From: Eledone cirrhosa
Lineage: Eukaryota
Direction of reading: 5' to 3'
Assembly (NCBI GenBank): GCA_964016885.1
Contig: OZ024745.1
Coordinates: 134,230,001-134,294,000, forward strand
Length of the DNA: 64,000 nt
Part shown: positions 9,284 through 49,245 of the stretch, piece by piece
Position numbering within the stretch: the first letter of the stretch is position 1
Layout of the letters: every line of letters begins with the position of its first letter
The notes under the pieces: generated by a model
Told to the model about the DNA's origin: nothing
The model's database searches: none
What the model saw: the letters and a program-made list of their open reading frames with translations, nothing else
Translations under genes and position numbers: made by a program

Positions 9284-11987
9284 GGGGCGCAAACGAGATA
9301 CGTAGGAAACAGGGTCCTGGAAAGCAAGATCAACAAGGGCAAGCATTTGCCCAGGCAACGCTAGAGGAGCACCATACAGTAATTCGGCCGGGGAGAACCC
9401 AAGGTCCTCCTTTATTGATGACCGAATTCCTAACAACACAATAGGAAGGTACTCGCTCCAACGTTGAGAGTCTGGATAGGCGCGAAAAGCGGCCTTTAAT
9501 TGGCGGTGGAATCGTTCCACCATTCCGTTTGAAGCAGGATGATAGGCTGTGGTCAGAATCCGTTGAGCGCCAATGATCTTTGTGAGCTCAGAGAAAAGAT
9601 GGGACTCAAATTATCTACCACGGTCTGTGGTGACTGTAGTTGGTACCCCAAAGCGAGTAATCTACCCTGATACCAGGGCACGCGCTACAGTCTCAGCAGT
9701 TATATCTTGTAAGGGGATGGCTTCAGGCCATCTCGAAAAACGATTGACACAGGTTAAGAGGTACGAATATCCACTGCTGAATGGCCAAGGTCCAACGAGG
9801 TCAATGTGTATGTGCTGAAACCGAGCATCAGGAGTACTGAAAGTACCAAGCGGAGTCCGGATGTGTCTGTGGATTTTAGATCTCTGACACTGTGTGCAGG
9901 AACGGCACCAGAGAGTAATTTCTCGCCTCGTATTGGGCCAGTAGCCGTTATAAGCTTTACTGTGGCAGAAATTCCTGGGTGAGAAATGTTGTGCAAAGCA
10001 AGGAACACAATTCGACGGTGAGTTTCAGGAACAAGTGGTCGTGGTGAATCCGTAGATACATCACATAGAATCTGCCTGTCGGTGGTCGACAAGGGCAGAT
10101 ATTTGAAGATACAAGTCGCAAATTCGGCAGAAAGAGTATCCAACGATTGGAGTGCAGGTTGATCTGTAGCTAAACGACCTAAGTCGATCTCGGATGACGA
10201 GATGGAGCTGATTGGCAAACGTGACAATGCGTCTGCAGCTACGTTATGCGAGCCAGCAATGTGCTGGATATCATTTGTAAATTACGAAACGTAGTCCAGG
10301 TGCCTTGTCTCTCTGGGCGAATATCTGTCGCTTTAGCCCTCAAAGCGAAGGTCAGAGGTTTGTGGTCGGTTAAAACTGTAAAATTTCTCCCCTCAAGAAT
10401 ATGAGAGAAATGTTTCACCGACAGATATATGGTTAATAATTCCCGCCCAAACGTGCTGTAACGCGTTTCTGCTGGTTTCAGCTTCCTCGAGAAAAATACC
10501 AAGTTGGTTTCCAGCGTTGAACTGCTGTAAAATGCTCCCACAGCGGTATCAGATGCATCAACTCAAAGTGAAAGCTTGGCATCTGGTACAGGGTTGGCTA
10601 GTAAAGATGAACTAGCGAGTGCTGTCTTGGCAGTCTAGAAGTCTTGAAGCTGTCCTTGTGTCAAGGAAATATCCTCATTCTTCTTACGACGATTTTTCAA
10701 AATGTCAGTAAGGGAAGATAGCAAATTAGCACAATGAGGAAAGAAACGCCTATAGAAATTGATTAGGCCTAAGAAGTGACGCAACTGGTGAAGTGTAGTA
10801 GGCGGAGGTAAATCCTGTATGGCTTGAACTCGCTGAGGGAGCGACCTAATACCTTCCGTGTCGATGAGGTGGCCTAAAAAATTTAGCGAAGTGGAACCGA
10901 AAACACACTTTGCGGGATTCACACGAACGCGGTAATCCTGAAGTCGCCGAAATAAGAGATGCATGTGGCGTATATGCTCTTCCGGAGAGGAACTAGCGAC
11001 GAGAATATTGTCTATGTAAGCATAACGAAGTCCAGACCACGAGTCACTTCGTCTATGAACCGCTGAAAAGTGCTAGTGGCGTTCCTGAGTCCGAAAGGCA
11101 AGGTCAAAAAATTCGAAGGATCCGAAAGGAGTTGTAATCGCCGTTTTCAGAATATCCTCCTTCCTGACCGGAATTTGGTGGTAGGCTTGCACTAAATCTA
11201 GTTTTGAGAAAATTTTACACCCTTGCAGTGAAGATGCGAAATCCTGGAGATGGGGAATAGGATACCTATCCAGGACGGTCATAGCATTTAACCTTCTATA
11301 ATCCCCAGTGGATCTCCAGTCGCCGGAAGTCTTGGGCACCATGTGTAACGGTGAAGCCCAAGGACTCGAAGATGGGCGAATAATGCCCAGCTGTAGCATA
11401 TGGTCGAACTCGGACCGTGCTGCCTTTAATTTGTCCGCCGGTAAGCGGCGTGGACGCGAAAACACTGGAGCACCGGTGGTGGAAACGAAATATTCAGTTG
11501 AGTGTGTTGGCTCAGTGACTCGAAAATTTCCATCGGTGAGCTCCGGGAAAGAACCTAGCAACGAATGGTAGGCGTCTCCAGCGGCAGCGATGAAGAATAT
11601 GGGGCTGACTGTTGGAGCATCAGCTTTCCGGCCACGAATTGAAAAACCGGTGATGTCATCCACCAGGCGTTGGCCACGGACGTCCACAGTCAATGAGAAG
11701 TTGTGGAGGAAATCCGCTCCTAAGATAGGGTATGGCAAATCGGCAACCGTAAAAATCCACTTAAAATCCCTACGAAGATTTAGGAATTTGAGAGGAAGCG
11801 AGATTTGCCCGTACGTCTTTATAGACGAGTGATTAACTGCCTGCAGAGTAACGGCAATGGACCGGCCAAATACTACAGGAGGCTCCTGTATCCACGAGGA
11901 AACCTCTTCCCGACATAAGGTCCTTAATGAAGAAATGGCGGTTTGGTGGCTTTATGTTGAGGTCAACTTCCCCCATCAGCGGACCTC
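9284..11987 (-). pseudogene. pol: Gypsy pol (PR-RT-RNaseH-IN), multiply frameshifted
   Basis: ORF pieces 11073-11738, 10635-10964, 10239-10541, 9754-10227 and 9254-9523 carry successive pol motifs. Confidence 0.92.
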
Positions 11988-12780
11988 TTAGGCGTTTCCC
12001 GCCTTATGAAACGAGCAAGGTTGCACGAAGTTGTTCGCGCTCTCGGCAAATCGCTCATGGTACCAGCATAAAGATGAACCTGGTGACTTGGAACGACATC
12101 TAAAAGATTGCGATATCCCGCGGCTGCGGGGGCGCGAACGGGCACCACACCAGGCCTTCATCTTATGGAGCTCCAGGTTGAGTTCCTGAATGGCCTTCTG
12201 CATCGCCATAATAGCTGAGCTGTCTATAGGCGCTGCCGCGCAGATTCCATGGCCAGGTGTGGCCCGAGCTGGGTGGGAAACAGCGGCAAGGGCTTCGCTG
12301 CCTCCAGCACCCGTCACTTCGAAAACTTTGTCCGCAGAGGCGGCAAGCTGATCCCCCGTGCAAGTATCCCTAATGGGGGCCAAAATTGCCTGTACGTTGG
12401 TCGGTAGGCGCGAGAAGAACAACTGCTTCAGCATGGCAGTTTCTGCTACCGACCCCTCCGTTAGGTCCTTCATTCGCCTTATGAGGTTCGATGGGGTGCC
12501 ATCACCTATATGCTCCAGATGAACTAGAGCCCTAAATCTTTTTTCTGCAGACTGCAGTCCGGCTGAGTATTTCAGCCTTCAGAGACTTGTACGTCGCGTC
12601 GGTGGGTGTCTCTAACACCAGGTCCTTAATCGCTGGGAGAAGTGCCGGCGGAATTGCACTAAGGACCAGAGGACGTTGTTGTGCCTCGTCAACTCTGTTC
12701 GCCTCGAAAAATGCTTCGAGTTGGGCGAACCATAGCCTTACGTCGCCCGTGTACGTAGGTAGAACAGAATGAGATGCCAT
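11988..12780 (-). pseudogene. gag: Gypsy gag, frameshifted
   Basis: MASHSVLPTYTGDVRLWFAQLEAFF.. (within ORF 12532-12864) continues into 11988-12473 (LKQLFFSRLP..CWYHERF..PC). Confidence 0.85.
11994..12000 (-). promoter_or_regulatory. Putative -1 ribosomal frameshift slippery site GGGAAAC at the gag/pol junction
   Basis: G GGA AAC lies in the gag frame one codon before the gag TAA stop. Confidence 0.65.
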
Positions 12781-21676: not shown

Positions 21677-21719
21677 ACGTTGCTGACGATAGCTAATAAG
21701 CTTGAAACTAGTACAGCGT
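21677..21719 (+). ncRNA. Minimal type I hammerhead ribozyme motif
   Basis: acgttg-CTGACGA-t-agc(taataa)gct-t-GAAAC-ta-GTA|cagcgt. Stem I pairs over 6 bp; stem III is the palindrome actagt. Confidence 0.85.
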
Positions 21720-21723
21720 TCCT

Positions 21724-22923
21724 TTGTCAGTGTTGTCACAATCTAATCACCCTAAATCTATCCTTAAAAACCTTGCATATAATATATCACTTAGAATTTC
21801 TAACCTTTCTTCTAACCAAGATGTATTTGATAAAAATGCGACCTTCTATAACGAAGCTCTAGATAGAAGTGGCCACAAAAATAAAGTAGAGTATATACCT
21901 TCTACTAAAAATACTGAAAGCATACAACATAATATTACCAACAAACACCAAATGAAAAGTACACACCTAAATGCCACCCACACTATACCCCAAAATACCA
22001 AATCTTCTAATATAAAGTATAGTAACTCTCAAAAAACTACTCATCATACAACTCTAATAAATATTAATAATAAAACTCCTAATAAAAAGGATAAAACACC
22101 TAAATCTACAAATATAACTAAAAATAGTCGTGGTGAGATCATTAACATTAATCCTCCTAGTAAAAATCACGATACAACCTATAAAAATAATAAAAATAAT
22201 AAACAACATAGAAACCGTAATAGACGGGTTACTTGGTATAATGCTCCTTTTAATTTACAAGTTAAGGATAATATTGCTAAAAAATTTTTTTATATCCTTG
22301 AGAAAAACTTCCCGCCAAACCACAAATACCATCAAATCTTAAATAGGTCTACAGTTAAATTCTCATACTCTACAACAAATAACATAAAACAAAATATAAG
22401 TGCATATAATGCATATAAATGTAAGAAAACCATAAGTATACCACCAGTACATCAAATTAACCATAATATCTCCTCAAATACAGAATTAACGAAAGGATGT
22501 AACTGTAGAAACAAAGCAAACTGCCCATTAAAAGGGAATTGTCTTGTTAACAACATAGTCTATAAATGTAATGTTAAAACTAAAGATTCTATTTGCTCAT
22601 ATATAGGAGCTACCTCTAACAATTTTAAGACAAGGTTTAATACCCACAAGCATAGTTTTAAAAATGCCGCACTGGCTAATACAACATCTCTAGCTGAAAA
22701 AATCAATAGTTATAAAAATAAGAATATAAAATATGATTTGACCTGGAGTGTGCTCAAAAGAGCCACCCCTTATCAAAATAATAGAAATGAATGTAGATTA
22801 TGTTCCCAAAAACTATTTGAAATAATGAAGTCTAAGGATATCTTATTAAATAAACGACAGGAATTAATTATATCGTGTAATCATAAACTAAAAAAAACAT
22901 TTAAATATTATAAACCTAATTAA
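21724..22923 (+). pseudogene. PLE RT thumb + Cys-rich linker + GIY-YIG endonuclease (N-terminally truncated, frame open for 399 aa)
   Basis: SNHP..ILKNL..RISNLSS..FYNEAL..SG; RRVTWYN.PF; CNCRNKANCPLKGNC; IVYKC..YIGAT..FKTRF..H; CRLC; LNKRQE..CNH. Confidence 0.92.
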
Positions 22924-26580: not shown

Positions 26581-27253
26581 ATATTTCTTTTTTTCTTTTT
26601 TCTTTTTTCTTTTTTCTTTTTTCTTTTTTCTTTTTTCTGTTTTTCTTTCTTTCCTCCTTAATGTTTTATTTATTATATTTTATTTTTTTATTTGTTTATT
26701 TTTCTTAGTTTATAGATACATTTATATTAAGCAGTCTGCTCAGACCGTTGAATACTGACCCCTCCCCCCCCTCCCACCTAATTTCTGTATCTTGATCTGA
26801 AAATGTGTGTGCCAGTGTTTTATGTGAGTGAATTAATATCCATGTGCTTATGATTTTATATCCACATATATAAATGTGAGTGGGGGTGTGTGTGTGTTTG
26901 TATGTTCGTGGTTATGTGTATATTTATGCATATACGCGCGTGTATGTGTGATTGTACGGATGTGTGTGACTATGAAAAAAATATATTTATATACTTAACT
27001 TCATAAGTGTCAATACGCATCTTATTTGTACATTATAAACTCACAGAGACATTAACCTTGAAATTTTGTATTTGCATCCATCCTTTTAGTATGCGTATAC
27101 AAATTATACATACATTTTTGTAAAATATATGTAAGGGTTTTACATGTATATACACACACCGAACTGCATTTAACCCTTTGTGTTTTCATTGGTCAATTTT
27201 TGTTCCCAAACGGACCTGAAATTTTGAATTGTTGTTATTATCAATAAATATAC

Positions 27254-27408
27254 TTCATTATTTCTGAAGACGGCGTATATATGTGTTTGGTATGTATATT
27301 TAATCTTGATAATTTGTATAATTTTGTATAATTTTGTACATAGATCTGTTGAATATGCATACCAACTCTAACACATATATATCCTAGAAACGATCGTTAA
27401 ATAATGAA
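27254..27408 (+). ncRNA. Type I hammerhead with ~115-nt extended stem II
   Basis: ttcattattt-CTGAAGA-[tatatatgtgtt..tggtatgtatatt..aatatgcatacca..aacacatatata]-GAAAC-gatc-GTT|aaataatgaa; perfect 10-bp stem I. Confidence 0.82.
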
Positions 27409-27691
27409 CTTTTTTTGTTTAATATAAGGAATTGTTTATTCATTATTTGTTTAATATTTTATCTTGACTCTGTATACCGTTTATCTTTCACCGAAAGTGG
27501 TTTTTCATTACATCTCTTCTTTCCATGATATCCGGAATACATTGAGTTCTTCATACGGATTGGACACTACCGTAAACTCTTGGTAGATTTATCTACATAT
27601 ATATATTATATATATATTATATATAATATATATATATATAATATATATTAAAATATAAATATTAATAAAATAGATGTTCTTTTGATCAATT

Positions 27692-27747
27692 ACATTTATT
27701 ATACATATTTCGGATGTACAACAGTACGTCCTCATCAGACAAAATAT
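27692..27747 (-). ncRNA. Minimal type I hammerhead, intact core
   Basis: atattttgt-CTGATGA-ggacgtac(tgtt)gtacatcc-GAAA-tatgt-ATA|ataaatgt. Confidence 0.78.
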
Positions 27748-27845
27748 AATGATACATGACATACCCTGAGATGTTAAATGGTTAAGATTTACTACCTTGA
27801 TTAAATCTTAACCATTTAACATCTCAGGGTATGTCATGTATCATT

Positions 27846-27902
27846 ATATTTTGTCTCATGGGGACGTACTGTTGTACATCCGAAATATGTATAATAAAAT
27901 GT
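27846..27902 (+). ncRNA. Hammerhead copy with disrupted core (CTCATGG)
   Basis: Mirror of 27692-27747 with two core substitutions. Confidence 0.65.
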
Positions 27903-28045
27903 AATTGATCAAAAGAACATCTATTTTATTAATATTTATATTTTAATATTAATAACTCCGGAAAATTATTTTTCTTGTAGAGTGCTTCCAATCTACTGTA
28001 AAACTCATTCTTTGACATAATCATTGAATATCGTTTAACACTTTA

Positions 28046-28279
28046 ATATATATATAATATATATATATATAATATGTTATATATATAATATATATATATA
28101 TATATTATATATAATATATATATAATATATAAATATATATATATATATTATATATATTATATATATATTATATATACTGTCCCTGTGTACGCACTTACGC
28201 ATATGTCTGCGCATGTGTATTTTGTAGACATGTACGGTTATAAGTGAGTATTGCATTATTGGTTTATGTATGTGTGTGA

Positions 28280-29261: not shown

Positions 29262-30690
29262 TGTAGAATATTTACGTATCGAGAGAGAGAAGGAGGGATA
29301 GGTGATACATGTAGTTATTTGCCAATAGCGAATGCAGAGGGTGCTCAATACTAGTGCCGGCAGTGTTAAATATTAGAAGTGTTAATATCTAGTGGGCGAG
29401 AGAATTAGCAGAGCGTAAGCACGTGGAGAAATAAATATAGGAGAACAAACCGTTAACACATGTTTATTCAAAATAGCACCTACGTACGTTTCGCCCGAAT
29501 GGGCTTCTCAAGGGCATAAATAACTAAAAAGTGTTCCTTACATCACTTGGAATAAGTTTTTAGAGATGATAAGTTCATGTCAGAGTAAAAAAATCATGTA
29601 TTGATTTTGTAGTAGGTCAAGGGAGATAACCCAGGCCGGTGTTAGGGAAGTCTTTTCCGGACAAATTTTTTATCCGTTGCTAGTATGTGGCTACTACCTT
29701 ACCATTGTTGATACGCACAGGGTCATGTATACAACGTTTGTTTCGAGACGTTTGTTTTCAGCGCCTGGGTCGATTCCTGCCGGGTCTGGGATGCATGGTT
29801 AGTTTCCGGATGTTTTTTGCAGCGCCTGCCCGCCGGGGTGTTAAAGCTTGGTGCAGAGAGACCCGGTTTACGGTTTCACTCCTCGTTCTTATTCCATCTG
29901 GAGTAAGATATTTTTAAGCTGTGTGTACAGGCTATCGTCGTTTCAGCTCTGCTTTTGATGAGCTCGTGGGGTGCCGTTATGATGTGGTAGAGCTCCATGA
30001 GGCAAAGCTCGCACTTCCTCTTGAAGTTGTACGGTGCAGCTCTGCCGACAATTTCCCAGTGCGTGGAGAAGCTGATGTTTGAGTCTTTTAATGATGTGAT
30101 GTAGTTCGCAAGCGAAGTGGAGTGTCTTAGTTTTTTTCGAAAGAGTGGAGATGTGTTCGAAATCTAATTTTGAACGGGCCAGAGGTAGCCCTTATATAAT
30201 GTTTAGCGCTATTATGGCTAATTACGGTGCACCTATATATAACCCTATCAGTCAAGCAGTTCCCCCTAAGGGGGCAGCGTCCCCTGTCGCGGCAGTTGCA
30301 ATTTCGGTCGCGGTCCCTTCTAGTTCTCACGGTAAGGCTATTATTATTGCTATCTACGTTGTTACCTACGCTCCCACACCTGTCATTAGCACCATTATAA
30401 CCTACTTCGTGCGGACTGGTACCATTATTATTCCGCACGCAGCAGCTACTTCTGTTGCCGCCAGGTGACCCGTGCGGGTCACTTGCATATTCCCCAGTCA
30501 TGTCGCGGTTTTGTTGATTGCGTCTGTAGTGACTGTTCCCAGCACTATTGGATGCTGCTAGGGAGTTGTTAAGGCCGATATTGTTGTTGTCAGGTGTAGG
30601 TGCGTCTGCGCTAAGGTGCTGTGTCTTGGTGATCTTACTGTGATTAGTTGTTTCTATGATGTCTGCTAGGTTAGAAGGCTGGGTAGACAC
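29262..30690 (-). mobile_element. 5'-truncated Penelope-like element 2 (GIY-YIG + pLTR with HHR)
   Basis: CNCRDRGRCPLRGNC..VIYRC..YIRAT..FKIRFRTH; a frameshift at the poly-A near 30131 continues STSLANYI..WEIV..CELC..CTH to a stop at 29876; HHR downstream; ends at (TA)n. Confidence 0.88.
29476..29515 (-). ncRNA. Minimal hammerhead with U3:A8 core variant
   Basis: gccc-TTGAGAA-gccc(attc)gggc-GAAAC-gtac-GTA|gg(t)gc. Confidence 0.72.
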
Positions 30691-31249
30691 ACAATAATTA
30701 AAAATATAAATTAAAATGCATATACGCACCTCTATAACTAGATAACATACGCGTACAAATCCAAAGAGATCTTTTTCGCCAGGAAGTTGTTGACTAAAAT
30801 GAAATAGTCTATAGGTCATCAACGCGTGCAAGACTATACATTCCAGACAACTCTAAGAGAATCTAAGACAGCAACACGCAGCAGAGAGATGTGACAGCGT
30901 GCGCAGGGTAGTGAACTAGTGGTATCTGAGTGATGAGCTGCTAGAAAGGGCAGCCCAAAAACCACTCAAAGAAATGTGCTCAACCAAACAGAGAGAGAGG
31001 AAAGACTGTTATAAGGAACGAAATATCACCATAAATTAACGGAGCCATAGACTCTCGTTATTCCCTGTAAATAATGTGCTCAAAGGAAAAGGAATCCTGA
31101 GCTCTTTAAAATACAATATGTTGAAAGGGTAACACACTAGAGAGAGATAGTGTGCCATCAAATATATATATATATATATAAGATTTCGTTTCAAGCATAG
31201 CTTTATAGAAATATGTATAGAAATTTCGTATTTCTAAAGAAACACGGTT

Positions 31250-32557: not shown

Positions 32558-33630
32558 GGTGGTTTGTACCGTGATGACGGTATTTTGACCATGACAAAGT
32601 GCGGCCCTTGTGCTTGCGACAGGTTCAGAAAAGAACTTACAGCCTTCTTTAAAGGCTTCAACCTCTCCATACAGATTGAGACCAACCTTTCGGTCGTTAA
32701 TTACCTCGACGTTACCCTCAATTTGTCGAATGGCTTGCACTACCCGTATAGAAAGCCGAATGATACGCTTAATTACATAAGTAACCATCCTGCCAGCATA
32801 ACCAAGAAACGTTTCTTTGAGGCTTTCCCGTCTATCTACAAACGAGCATATTTTCAACGACCATTCCACATATTACAATGAAGCTCTTGCTCGGAGTGGA
32901 TTTGTCGATAAGGTAGCTTATACAGAGTACGAGAATAGACCTAGGAAAAATAGATCCCGACGCATTATATGGTATAACCCACGATATAATTTGGAGGTGG
33001 CCACACCATTAACTAAGATCTTTCTCTCCCTTATTATGAAGCATTTCCCCCCAGCACATAAATATAGTAAAATGTTTAATAGAAATACCATTAAAATTTC
33101 TTACTCTACGACTCCTAACCTTGCACATAACATCACAGCTTCAAATTTAGCTAAATTACCTAGCCGTAGGAACACGTGCAACCCTGTAGCTAGTACTAAC
33201 TGTAATTGTAGGAATCGGGTTGACTGCCCCCTATCCGGGAAATGCCTCTCTAGAAAAATTGTCTACAAATGTAAGGTTGAAACACCCACGCCCCGTAGGG
33301 CCTACATAGGGTTAACCGCCAATAGATTCAAGCAGCGTCTTTACATGCATACCCATTCTTTTCTTAACCCTTTAAGAAGGAATATGACGTCACTTTCAGC
33401 TTATATCTGGAGTCTAAAAGACAACCACACCCAATATAAGTTACACTGGGAGATCCTAGCTAAGGCGAGATCGTATAACGGAAGTAAAAGACCATGTGAC
33501 CTCTGCGCCGCTGAGGCCCTGGAAATACTCTACGCCAAAGACCACATCTTAAACAAAAAATCTGAGGCAGGCAATTGCGGCTTGTAAACATAAATTGCAC
33601 AAAACTTTCCTGTATTACAGCCCCACATTA
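32558..33630 (+). pseudogene. PLE RT (GLYRDD, VNYLDV, PYRKP, SNHP) + GIY-YIG (IVYKC..YIGLT..FKQR), frameshifted
   Basis: ORFs 32564-32881 and 32817-33587; CNCRNRVDCPLSGKC linker, CDLC, LNKKSE. Confidence 0.92.
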
Positions 33631-37439: not shown

Positions 37440-39932
37440 GACACAGCAATAGACAGCCATACACAGCCATAGACAGCAATAGACAGATATACACATTCAT
37501 AGACAGACATAGACAGCCATAGACAGACATACACAGCCATAGACAGATATACACAGCAATAGACAGATATACACAGCAATAGACAGACATACACAGCCAT
37601 AGACAGACATACACAGTAATAGACAGACATACACAGCAATAGACAGACATACACAGCAATAGACAGACATACACAGCAATAGACATACATACACAGCAAT
37701 AGACAGACATACACAGCCATAGACAGATATACACAGCAATAGACAGACATACACAGCAATAGACAGACATACACAGCAATAGACAGACATACACAGCCAT
37801 AGACAGACATACACAGCCATAGACAGACATACACAGCCATAGACAGACATACACAGCCATAGACAGACATACACAGCCATAGACAGACATACACAGCAAT
37901 AGACAGATATACACAGCAATAGACAGACATACACAGCAATAGACAGACATACACAGCCATAGACAGACATACACAGCAATAGACAGCCACAGACAGACAT
38001 AGACAGACATACACAGCCATAGACAGATATACACAGCAATAGACAGCCATAGACAGACATCCACAGCCATAGACAGACATACACAGCAATAGACAGACAT
38101 ACACAGCAATAGACAGACATACACAGCCATAGACAGATATACACAGCAATAGACAGACATCCACAGCAATAGACAGACATGCACAGCAATAGACAGACAT
38201 ACACAGCAATAGACAGCCATAGACAGACATAGACAGACATACACAGCAATAGACAGACATACTCAGCAATAGACAGACATACACAGCAATAGACAGACAT
38301 ACACAGCCATAGACAGACATACACAGTAATAGACAGACATACACAGCAATAGACAGACATACACAGCAATAGACAGACATACACAGCCATAGACAGACAT
38401 ACACAGTAATAGACAGACATACACAGCAATAGACAGACATGCACAGCAATAGACAGACATACACAGCAATAGACAGCCATAGACAGACATAGACAGACAT
38501 ACACAGCAATAGACAGCCACAGACAGACATAGACAGACATACACAGCCATAGACAGACATACACAGCCATAGACAGCAATAGACAGATATACACAGCCAT
38601 TGACAGACATACACAGCAATAGACAGCCATAGACAGACATAGACAGACATACACAGCCATAGACAGACATACACAGCAATAGACAGACATACACAGCCAT
38701 AGACAGACATACACAGCAATAGACAGACATACACAGCAATAGACAGATATACACAGCCATAGACAGACATACACAGCAATAGACAGACATACACAGCAAT
38801 AGACAGACATAGACAGACATACACAGCCATAGACAGACATACACAGCAATAGACAGACATAGACAGACATACACAGCCATAGACAGCCATAGACAGCCAT
38901 AGACAGATATACACAGCAATAGACAGACATACACAGCAATAGACAGATATACACAGCCATAGACAGACATACACAGCAATAGACAGACATACACAGCAAT
39001 AGACAGACATGCACAGCTATAGACAGACATAGACAGACATACACAGCCATAGACAGACATACACAGCAATAGACAGACATACACAGCAATAGACAGACAT
39101 ACACAGCAATAGACAGACATACACAGCCATAGATAGCAATAGACAGACATACACAGCAATAGACAGACATACACAGCAATAGACAGACATACACAGCCAT
39201 AGACAGACATACACAGCCATAGACAGACATACACAGCCATAGACAGACATACACAGCAATAGATAGCAATAGACAGACATCCACAGCCATAGACAGATAT
39301 ACACAGCAATAGACAGACATACACAGCAATAGACAGACATACACAGCCATAGACAGACATACACAGTAATAGACAGACATACACAGCAATAGACAGACAT
39401 ACACAGCCATAGATAGATATACACAGCAATAGACAGACATCCACAGCAATAGACAGACATGCACAGCAATAGACAGACATACACAGCAATAGACAGCCAT
39501 AGACAGACATAGACAGACATACACAGCAATAGACAGACATACACAGTAATAGACAGACATACACAGCAATAGACAGACATGCACAGCCATAGACAGACAT
39601 ACACAGCAATAGACAGCCACAGACAGACATAGACAGACATACACAGCCATAGACAGACATACACAGCCATAGACAGCAATAGACAGATATACACAGCAAT
39701 AGACAGATATACACAGCCATAGACAGACATACACAGCTATAGACAGCCATAGACAGACATAGACAGACATACACAACCATAGACAGACATACACAACCAT
39801 AGACAGCAATAGACAGATATACACAGCCATAGACAGCAATCGACAGATATACACAGTCATAGACAGCAATCGACAGATATACACAGCCATAGACAGCAAT
39901 CGACAGATATACACAGCAATAGACAGACATAC
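37440..39932. repeat. Satellite of 10-bp units (agacagacat / acacagc[a/c]at) with a 20-bp dimer period, ~2.5 kb
   Basis: Directly visible; the 10-bp register is kept throughout. Confidence 0.97.
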
Positions 39933-40107
39933 AAAGACAGATTAGTTGCTAGATATGTTGGTTTACTGATTGGCTTCTCTGTTGTGGGAAAGTTGTTGAG
40001 CAAGGCATCTGCCATAAGCAACATCTCATTAGTCTCTTCCAGCAACTTCCACGTAAACCACTTTATTAGACTTATCCGATGATCAAACAATGAACGATCG
40101 AATCAAT

Positions 40108-41400: not shown

Positions 41401-41935
41401 CGCTATTTCAGAGCACCAATTCTAATTTTCAATTTTTGCTGGACAGGCAACCGCTCTGTATAATCAGTTTCTGTTTATTACTGGAATTCTATAAGAATCT
41501 AACATTCATAATTTTCAGCAAACAAGGGAAGTGCTAGGCTTTGATAAGTACCAACAGAGCTCTGTCAGCTTATCTCCCCTTGTTTGCTGAAAATAGAAGT
41601 AAGTGACATAGTCATTTCTTTAAAACAATAGCGCAAGGTCTTCAAAATGCTTTTAATTAAGCATACAGTGTATTGCAAAATACACTATATATACATTCAT
41701 AAAATATATCGCTATTTCAGAGCACCAATTCTAATTATATATATATATATACTCATATAGTAGGCAAACTTCAGTAAAGCCACCAGGTTTTGATATTTTG
41801 TTTGTAGCTATTTCACTTTATTTACATTACCTGTATGGAGTCCTTTGTGCTTATATAAAAATTATTTTTTGGTCGCAGAAACAAACTAACTTTGAATAAC
41901 AAAATGATTCTTTTTTTTTTCTACAATTCTTTCAG

Positions 41936-42272
41936 CTGGTTGGCAAGTGCCAAGAAAACGATACTCACGAAGATACCGACACAGAAGCACCCTGGACGAC
42001 CTCGAAGAACTGATAGCACCAACCATGAGTTGCAGTAGCTACTACAGTGGTGGTGATGAAGCGAATGATTTACACGAGGAGGAAGAAGGACTGGTCGATA
42101 ACACTTTTCATTCAGAAGATGAAGATGATAACCACCATGCAAATATAATGGGAAGAGAATCTATAGACAGGCAGTTTCTACAACGGGAACTGCACAACAT
42201 GAGAGTGGAGTTAGAGCAAGCTAAGGAAACAATCCACAAGCTTCAAGACAGGGAAAAGCAACTACGTGACAG
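41936..42272 (+). CDS. MIEAP/SPATA18-like gene, first visible exon (acidic + coiled coil); possible start ATG at 42025
   Basis: Acceptor tttcag|, donor ag|gtatt (phase 2); LQRELHNMRVELEQAKETIHKLQDREKQLRDR joins in frame to the next exon. Confidence 0.8.
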
Positions 42273-43219
42273 GTATTATTTCTTTCTTGAAATTCTTGTT
42301 GTTGTTGCTGCAGGAACCTGGGTAAACACTAATAATAATTCTGTCAGGAGTTGCGACTAGCAGATAGTATCAGCAATGGAAAAACCAATAGAAACAGTTT
42401 CCTTTGTTCAAACTGAAGATTGAATCTTCTCCTTGAACAGGTCAAAAGACTACAACCTCTCTCATTACCCTCAACAACTTCTGTTTTATCGCTAGGTATC
42501 GTTTGTAGAGATTCTTAACTTTTATAGACATCGTAAATGTCTGTGTACCAGCAATAGTAAAGCCTGTTCTTTTCTTTTAGGAGTGTATTTAATTTTTTTA
42601 AAGTATTTATTTAATATATAGGTTGAACAATAAAATGCAAAGATGAGGTTTAATGCTTTATTCATTTCAAAATGTGGTATGAACCATGCTATCGTGAGAC
42701 TGATCATTAGCAGTTATGTAACTATTGAAGGCCGTGAAGTAGCAGAGTCATCATTAGAATGTCGGATAGAATGTTTTGTGGTATTGGTTTCAGCTTTCTG
42801 TGTTCAAATCTGCTGTATTTAGACCCAGAGAAGAGATGGGCTCTGCCAGGTTTTTAAAATGATGTAGAAGTGCTGTATGTTAATACAGCTCTTCTACAAT
42901 TCCATGCCGAGTTACGGGGCAAAGAAAACTCCTTATTATTAGCTTTGATAAAACATATCCATCCCACAGTATTTCTCATATTTTTAAGGAAGATGTATTA
43001 TATACATTTTGAAAATAAAACAAATTATAATTTCTTAAACAATCAACATGAATTTAAGTATTTCTGCATTTGTGGGCAAAACATTTAACTCTACATTGCC
43101 TTCACCTGGTTCTTGGGAATATATACCAGATCAGGAATGTTACCTATGGTAGATTGATGTCATATATAATGGGCAGGTTTATTTATCCCTTGCATCATCT
43201 GCTGTAACGAGTCTTAACA

Positions 43220-48207: not shown

Positions 48208-48274
48208 ATACATACATACATATAGTGAAAGAGTGAAGAGTAACATAGTCGGCTGTACAAAAAGGTTTTATTTA

Positions 48275-48388
48275 CAGTATTAACAATTGTTTCATTGATC
48301 AGGTGAGTCTAAAGGCCGCTGATTACTCGAGGTTGTGTCACTTGACCTTAAATACAGTGTGGTCTCTGATCAAATCATCAGAATACTG
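48275..48388 (-). ncRNA. Type I hammerhead, intact core, long stem II loop
   Basis: cagtatt-CTGATGA-t-ttgatcag..(~60 nt)..ctgatcaa-t-GAAAC-aatt-GTT|aatactg; perfect 7-bp stem I. Confidence 0.85.
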
Positions 48389-48556
48389 GAGGGTGTAACA
48401 TATGGCATTAGTATTTATAGATACATCAGAGAATCAAGTAAATAAAAACAATAACATCATAATAAAAATATTATCTTTTATTATTGATGTTATTGTTTTC
48501 ATTTACTTGATTCTCTGATGTAATCTATAAATACCAATGCCATATGTTACACCCTC

Positions 48557-48670
48557 CAGTATTCCGATGATTTGATCAGAGACCACACTGTATTTAAGGT
48601 CAAGTGACATAACCTCGAGTAATCAGCGGCCTTTAGACTCACCTGATCAATGAAACAATTGTTAGTACTG
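48557..48670 (+). ncRNA. Hammerhead copy with U4C core change (CCGATGA)
   Basis: Mirror of 48275-48388. Confidence 0.7.
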
Positions 48671-49245
48671 TAAATAAAACCTTTTTGTACAGCCGACCAT
48701 GTTATTCTTCACTCTTTCACTATCATTACTCCAAGAATAACCTGCATGAGAATTCTCGCAAACTCGCCACCTAACTAAGGAAACCTTTTGTTGAGTCAAA
48801 CAATGCCGTACGTTAAAACTATCCACTGTACAGAGTACTCACAACCTCTAACTGGATTACCTAAAATTATACCTTGTATCCTATATATATATATGTATAT
48901 ATGTATAAGATAAACAGAAATAACAAAACAATTGCCTTCCCATCCGACCCTGCCCTCAAACAACAAATATAAGCTATTTTGCCAGATGGTGCTATTAAGT
49001 TAGACATGGCCTGGGCCACTACTGGTCGAAACCTATCAAAGTTATCTGTGGCGTATTGAGGATTTCATCCAACAATAAATCAATAGCTGAATGGAAATGG
49101 TAATCAATACAACTAGACCAGTGTCAACAGAATTGCGTAGAAATCCTATATAACATTGCTTCTATATAACACTGTATGTCATAAATATATATAAATACAC
49201 ACTTGTGCCACTTATATAATTTCATATATCGTTACTATTTTGCAG

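Follow-up and report, generated by a model that had tools for sequence, protein, structure and literature searches.

Probable neutral decay of one of two opposed hammerhead motifs in a palindromic Penelope-like element stub of Eledone cirrhosa, and a possible route of its insertion

Within the window, the 64-kb stretch of Eledone cirrhosa DNA analysed here, two copies of a hammerhead-like motif face each other in a near-perfect palindrome, one with an intact and the other with an altered catalytic core. This raises two questions: was one core inactivated in a non-random manner, and how does such a palindrome arise? All coordinates are positions within the window, and element positions (q) equal the window position minus 27791. 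The layout suggested by the sequence-only reading—(TA)n, inverted arm, 10-nt loop, direct arm, tail, (TA)n—was borne out. The left (TA)n target tract (27597–27648; detected by TRF), which is shared with the 3′ terminus of a neighbouring, younger Penelope-like element (PLE) family, is followed by the tail-less inverted arm (27645–27791, minus strand; q11–q158), which ends at an AT-rich site at q158, the end of 135 out of 186 inverted arms in a survey of sibling palindromes. At the junction (27791–27801, plus strand), the 10-nt loop (27792–27801) consists of the first bases of the tailed arm, and the A at 27791, i.e. q0, is common to both arms. This A belongs to a TCACT motif and represents a putative +1, where most arms stop and where the focal tailed arm starts. 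The direct arm (27802–27949, plus strand; q11–q158), a 96-nt tail (27950–28045, plus strand) and the right (TA)n target tract (28046–28176; TRF) complete the locus. With (TA)n on either side, no TSD is discernible. The palindrome itself is far beyond chance expectation.

Exact alignment of the two arms (147 and 148 bp; 148 columns) agreed with what had been seen by eye: in total, the arms differ by two substitutions, both within the 7-nt core, and by a 1-nt indel in stem I. The substitutions reside in the tailed arm, where 27857 (G>C) and 27861 (A>G) convert CTGATGA into CTCATGG (27855–27861), and since the unmutated state is that of the family majority, the tailed arm is the mutated one. The indel, the lack of one A from the 3′ strand of stem I, sits in the arm with the intact core. 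We take the substitutions to be G5C and A9G in standard hammerhead numbering; G5 and A9 have a catalytic role in the hammerhead core.

The inverted arm contains a putative type I hammerhead (27690–27749, minus strand) with the core CTGATGA (27738–27732), GAAA, a minimal palindromic stem III and a stem I that is short of one A; its putative counterpart in the direct arm (27844–27904, plus strand) combines the mutated core with a perfect stem I and a predicted cut after 27893. By hand, stem I could be paired over 11 bp and stem II with a single mismatch; stem III comprises 1–2 bp and a self-complementary loop. Thus the combination of CUGANGA, GAAA, NUH and three stems is present in the inverted arm, while the focal tailed arm departs from it in the core. 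No Rfam hammerhead matched the focal element at either the gathering threshold or E ≤ 10, and the ribozyme assignment therefore derives from motifs, hand-paired stems and sibling alignment. MIR9408, an Rfam family scoring 65 bits against a cut-off of 90, was discarded, as the match merely reflects the hairpin shape. Diverged pLTR relatives (72–82% identity; L002:1–215, L022:556–726, L250:7–197) have the same core and a stem II that is longer by ~12 nt with pairing retained, and variants at the level of the source copies mostly spare the invariant positions (2 of 51 distinct variants; p = 0.058). According to the available part of PMC4209133, minimal type I PLE hammerheads likewise have a CUGANGA/GAAA core, a long stem II and a 1–2 bp stem III with a palindromic loop; the long stem I (11 bp) of the present motif sets it apart from them.

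In silico, the whole element folds into a single hairpin (−233 kcal/mol; z = −32; matched by 0 of 100 shuffles). The intact ribozyme stretch alone has a predicted MFE of −11.9 kcal/mol, and its MFE structure differs from the hammerhead fold. The earlier suggestion that ~147 bp of dsRNA compete with ribozyme folding agrees with these predictions for a read-through transcript, in which the ribozyme would be buried. Such a read-through RNA would form the long hairpin regardless of the core variant. As the two hammerhead copies lie on opposite strands, they are never both in sense orientation in one transcript, and a cis dimer is impossible.

The direct arm and tail match a family of high copy number, with 1738 candidates at first look, among which the best 40 are 96–100% identical to the query, and a 34-nt core pattern has 1985 exact matches in the genome. 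Paired patterns retrieved 277 palindromes of the same family, with 162 and 132 tail-oriented matches as compared to 0 for the reversed controls. The focal palindrome is thus one of hundreds of head-to-head PLE stubs in this genome. Upstream of sibling pLTRs lies a long non-coding stretch preceded by disrupted ORFs that encode RT motifs and, at the C-terminal end, a region resembling an endonuclease; reading by eye, in broken copies only, identified the RT-like motifs DITSYYSSI, ITMGASDS and YRDD, followed by an endonuclease (EN)-like VYKC..YIG..FK.RF..H, and Pfam returned 0 matches for five ORF fragments. Among 30 loci with an ORF start, 19 carry the repeat upstream in direct orientation and continuing into the ORF, and in these ORF-linked copies the tail proceeds via a short internal (TA) run and a ~60-nt leader to the ATG. 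It is this continuity of tail and ORF in 19 of 30 loci that assigns q0–q254 to the pLTR/5′UTR of a Penelope-like element.

Three features of EN+ PLEs were found, namely a single ORF with RT plus, at its C terminus, a GIY-YIG-type EN, a pLTR derived from a partial tandem, and an inverted 5′-truncated copy with a one-sided tail. Siblings further contain the Hydra-clade motifs RWR (LRWRAF) and DKT (KSDKTN), i.e. RWK-like and with DKG changed to DKT, together with the Hydra-clade linker CxCX5C (CNCRNKTNC), CxxC (CPLCTME) and CxH (NKKSELFSSCLH), the last two beside conserved E and N residues; CCHH was absent from the sibling EN as judged by eye alone. Insertion occurred into (TA)n, as most flanks are TA-rich among the 49 of 50 palindromes whose flanks were displayed. 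Judged by these motifs, the parent is a Penelope-like element bearing Hydra-clade motifs, and the interpretation of the locus as a PLE inverted-pLTR insertion is upheld by the family match, the ORF with RT and EN, and the 19 of 30 loci whose tail continues as far as the ORF. In the available text of PMC8557442, the Hydra clade, which includes Hydra-1_Obim according to its supplement, shares the RWR (RWK-like) and DKT motifs, CxCX5C, CxxC, CxH, a hammerhead and the (TA)n target; this likeness is one of motifs, and the unit here is estimated at ~4 kb with a 3′UTR of ~1.7–1.9 kb, as compared to the "generally <3 kb" given there for the clade. A non-LTR retrozyme, described in the accessible part of 10.64898/2026.07.22.740005 as head-to-tail tandem repeats with a hammerhead in each, was ruled out because the copies here are arranged head to head on opposite strands.

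Several neighbouring features of the window deserve mention. The left flank of the focal element (27035–27597) constitutes the 3′ terminus of another, much younger family of PLEs, for which 942 candidates were found and 40 of 40 scored copies were ~100% identical over 271 nt, and which has a type I hammerhead-like motif of its own (~27254–27408) with a stem II of ~110 nt. ORF fragments representing the endonuclease end of PLEs, with the CxCX5C linker, occur at 21712–22923, 30127–30852 and 32802–33587, two of which were aligned; the sibling locus L278 carries an ORF nearly identical to the first. A second palindrome (48222–48723) belongs to another family (1961 candidates); its arms differ by seven substitutions and two indels and have a long stem II, and the paired-pattern search with this family matched that locus only. 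Its 28 nearest relatives are mostly non-canonical, with CCGATGA as the common core (23 of 31 cores, a count biased towards the query), so that this family may be spreading a hammerhead whose core bears the non-canonical U4C. Further along, there is a 2.5-kb tandem array of a 20-nt unit in 127 copies (37449–39933) and an exon, probably of the host, that codes for an acidic stretch resembling a coiled coil (41908–42360). Broken frames at 9662–12578 (minus strand) are, going by their motifs, presumably gag/pol of an LTR-retrotransposon-like element.

The sibling palindromes allowed the fate of the core to be assessed across the family. We retrieved 90 loci from each of the two sets of tail-oriented matches (162 and 132), skipping four with rearranged-looking letters and two that were already in the set. 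From 225 loci examined, 22 without an inverted arm, nine duplicates, five without a full tailed arm and three whose inverted arm ended short of the ribozyme were excluded, leaving 186 distinct two-arm pairs. Differences between arms were counted over q48–q143, leaving out the search anchor. Both 7-nt cores were intact in 161 of the 186 palindromes. Core positions differed in 29 of 1287 comparisons against 414 of 16288 in the background (p = 0.58; 37.1 expected after base-class adjustment), and the 11 invariant positions in 53 of 2026 against 390 of 15549 (p = 0.76). At the level of whole ribozymes, 138 loci had both copies intact, 39 had one damaged (20 in the tailed, 19 in the tail-less arm) and nine had both damaged, while independence would predict 48.3 one-arm and 4.4 both-arm loci. 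The sequence-only reading had proposed that core inactivation is non-random, and had itself named randomly placed differences in other palindromes as the outcome that would contradict it. The 186 siblings displayed neither enrichment in the core nor preference for an arm, and this claim fell.

Since sister palindromes have no excess of core changes, the broken core at the focal locus most likely reflects chance mutation: the two core substitutions are very probably neutral and were acquired by one arm once the insertion had taken place, in a head-to-head pLTR/5′UTR stub within (TA)n. Against this reading stand the mild clustering of arm differences noted below and the rarity of the focal pattern: that two of two substitutions hit the core has an a priori probability of 0.0016 and was expected at 0.056 of the 186 loci; it was seen at the focal locus only, which had been chosen for precisely this pattern. 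The focal locus is a single outlier with no trend behind it.

Two other accounts of the substitutions fare poorly. The first, which we regard as improbable, takes the G>C change to be a templated quasi-palindrome correction at a local mutation hotspot. This change does yield a perfect 8-bp palindrome, directly visible in the sequence, and arm differences are mildly clustered (80 close pairs versus 67 ± 6, p = 0.028; in 6 of 186 loci, all differences fall inside some 7-nt window). However, G5 variants among ~2000 near-identical copies (C in 6, A in 18, T in 3) mark no clear hotspot for G5C, and the second change, A>G, disrupts the palindrome. Weaker still, and hardly credible, is selection or targeted mutation that kills one hammerhead to create a strand-specific RNA switch or a dsRNA source: to the low a priori probability of the double core hit it adds the single core-base difference within the second palindrome of the window, but aside from the sibling counts, the stem I deletion lies in the "intact" arm, minimal type I PLE hammerheads are reported in the accessible part of PMC4209133 to be inactive as monomers, the non-canonical base of the second palindrome is the common state in its family (in the query-biased count above) and the difference there is therefore not an inactivation, and arm differences exhibit no A-to-I-like sense-strand excess of A>G (39 on 36 A versus 51 T>C on 37 T).

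While neutral decay accounts for the core, the second question concerns the origin of the palindrome, on which the siblings left a characteristic footprint. In a tail-unbiased set of 50 palindromes, 40 had one tail, two had two and two had none, with an interrupted arm in five and one unresolved case; exactly one tail was therefore present in 40 of 44 classifiable loci (p = 1.7e-8), as well as in all 11 long inversions for which both ends could be seen. The two arms of a locus are closely related: the haplotype at eight sites was identical in both arms at 116 of 186 loci (29.1 expected), and 35 locus-private variants were common to both arms (1.4 expected). Either arm may be the longer one. 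By an ungapped parse, which is imprecise for indel-bearing arms, 95 of 157 short palindromes had a tail-less arm extending further 5′ than the tailed one; this also held for 10 of 11 long inversions, and two of these 11 had a tail-only inverted stub. Among the 116 arms reaching q0, 86 ended exactly there, in a sample of palindromes selected for junctions near q0, and q0 lies ~26–31 nt below a TATA-like box. A cap-derived excess of G at q0 was not seen (20 of 86 versus 50 of 135 in a rough control). As none of the 19 ORF-linked upstream pLTRs begins at q0, its use as a transcription start is unseen in long copies. The focal junction recurs with different flanks in 10 of 186 loci, in four and six of them in the one and the other orientation. 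A 7-nt overlap was present at 13 of 182 junctions, and the loop region is flanked by an inverted repeat of 7 bp.

Some loci depart from this scheme. In L078 and L044, the arms come from different subfamilies (differing at six and four of eight diagnostic sites, respectively), reflecting either two templates or later conversion. L257 and L062 are tail/tail palindromes; the mirror image in L257 extends past the TA run into the flank, which points to a secondary fold-back or an assembly effect. L102 and L103 (contig C2) share the same unusual junction filler and are possibly a duplicated or re-transposed palindrome.

On balance, we favour a twin-priming route, in which both cut target strands would prime on the 5′UTR of one RNA. 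The endonuclease would cut both strands of a TA tract, and each cut end would then prime reverse transcription on the same uncleaved RNA, the one at q254 (the tail end) and the other at q158, 96 nt upstream, both of which are TTTAATAT-like sites in the 5′UTR. Both cDNAs would extend to, or near, the RNA 5′ end (q0) and be joined head to head through 0–9 nt of microhomology or short filler. The resulting stub is without the TATA-like box and the ORF, and is therefore predicted to be inert.

Twin priming is known from L1, where priming by the second target strand takes place at an internal position of the same RNA and produces an inversion joined by microhomology, and where the two parts barely overlap. 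In contrast, the internal site here appears fixed and the cDNAs usually overlap by 100–150 nt, which gives a palindrome. The closest biochemical parallel is Poseidon PAc of Anolis, for which in vitro work demonstrated that both strands can be cleaved and extended, that two internal RT starts flank the tail, and that uncleaved RNA is used (PMC11167929). As in PAc, the ends here are set by two sites flanking the tail and both target strands seem extendable, and the arms span the ribozyme cut site, consistent with use of uncleaved RNA. A point against the proposed route is that the starts of PAc occupy an AC-rich stem-loop within the ORF and have no homology to the target (PMC11167929), unlike the two ends described here, which are in the 5′UTR and resemble the target. 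Priming on one RNA alone is further challenged by the 2 of 186 loci with mixed-subfamily arms and the 4 of 44 tail/tail or none/none palindromes, and the shared haplotypes do not distinguish between one RNA, two RNAs of one source locus, and later conversion from arm to arm. The more specific statement, i.e. that the short palindromes form as a defined by-product when PLEs transpose, by twin priming at two fixed 5′UTR sites of one mRNA with run-off at +1, is plausible, if a little short of an even chance. We found no description of twin priming in PLEs, or of this family, in the literature searched, which mostly excluded subscription papers.

The most serious alternative to twin priming involves the same element and the same neutral mutations, but attributes the mirror image to fold-back and self-priming, perhaps with an antisense template, while endonuclease cuts would determine the two ends (see the accessible text of PMC3846280). 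It would account for the shared haplotypes and private variants, and the 7-bp inverted repeat by the loop is indeed used at some junctions (the 13 of 182 with a 7-nt overlap). However, if a cDNA started at the tail and then folded back, the tailed arm should always extend furthest 5′, which was true in only 62 of 157 short palindromes and in one of the 11 long inversions; inverted stubs that comprise the tail only and show no overlap (L252, L270) cannot be fold-back copies; and the focal junction was found in both orientations. The antisense version would be compatible with the counts of arm length, stubs and junction orientation. Overall, we consider self-priming unlikely, yet a contender. 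An assembly or chimeric-read artefact, such as a fold-back read, is a very unlikely origin of the palindrome: the locus is known from assembly sequence only and sits between long microsatellites, and the sibling L257 mirrors flanking DNA as well, but the arms differ at three places, unlike those of a fold-back read, hundreds of loci have junctions and flanks of their own, and the arm ends correspond to two different sites family-wide.

Many elements of the favoured twin-priming account have precedents. Inverted pLTRs, one-sided tails, TA targeting and pLTR hammerheads have all been published, as far as the available portions of PMC3846280, PMC8557442 and PMC4209133 extend. EN+ PLE insertions in the first two resemble the focal element in their head-to-head inverted pLTR, tail at one end, microsatellite target and short junction overlap, and also in having, ~20 nt upstream of a TCACT Inr-like motif, a TATA-like box; this TATA/TCACT layout is described by the former for a rotifer pLTR. 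Relative to the insertions described in these portions, the focal tail is longer (96 versus 30–40 nt) and lies within the 5′UTR, short of the ORF; ORF or internal sequence between the arms is lacking, and a TSD is indiscernible in the (TA)n.

The focal locus itself is ordinary, i.e. a transposon stub, predicted to be inert, with chance mutations. What is of value is the footprint seen across the family: each insertion usually has a single tail, both arms mostly share one template, the longer arm can be either of the two, and there is a hard stop at a putative +1. The hundreds of ~150-bp perfect hairpins would constitute a possible source of dsRNA in the host. If the twin-priming account is true, the process is recorded in hundreds of stubs across the genome, which also map +1 to the base, and the origin of the long-unexplained combination of an inverted pLTR with a one-sided tail would be settled. 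The footprint gives sharp predictions on how PLEs make tandem and inverted insertions.
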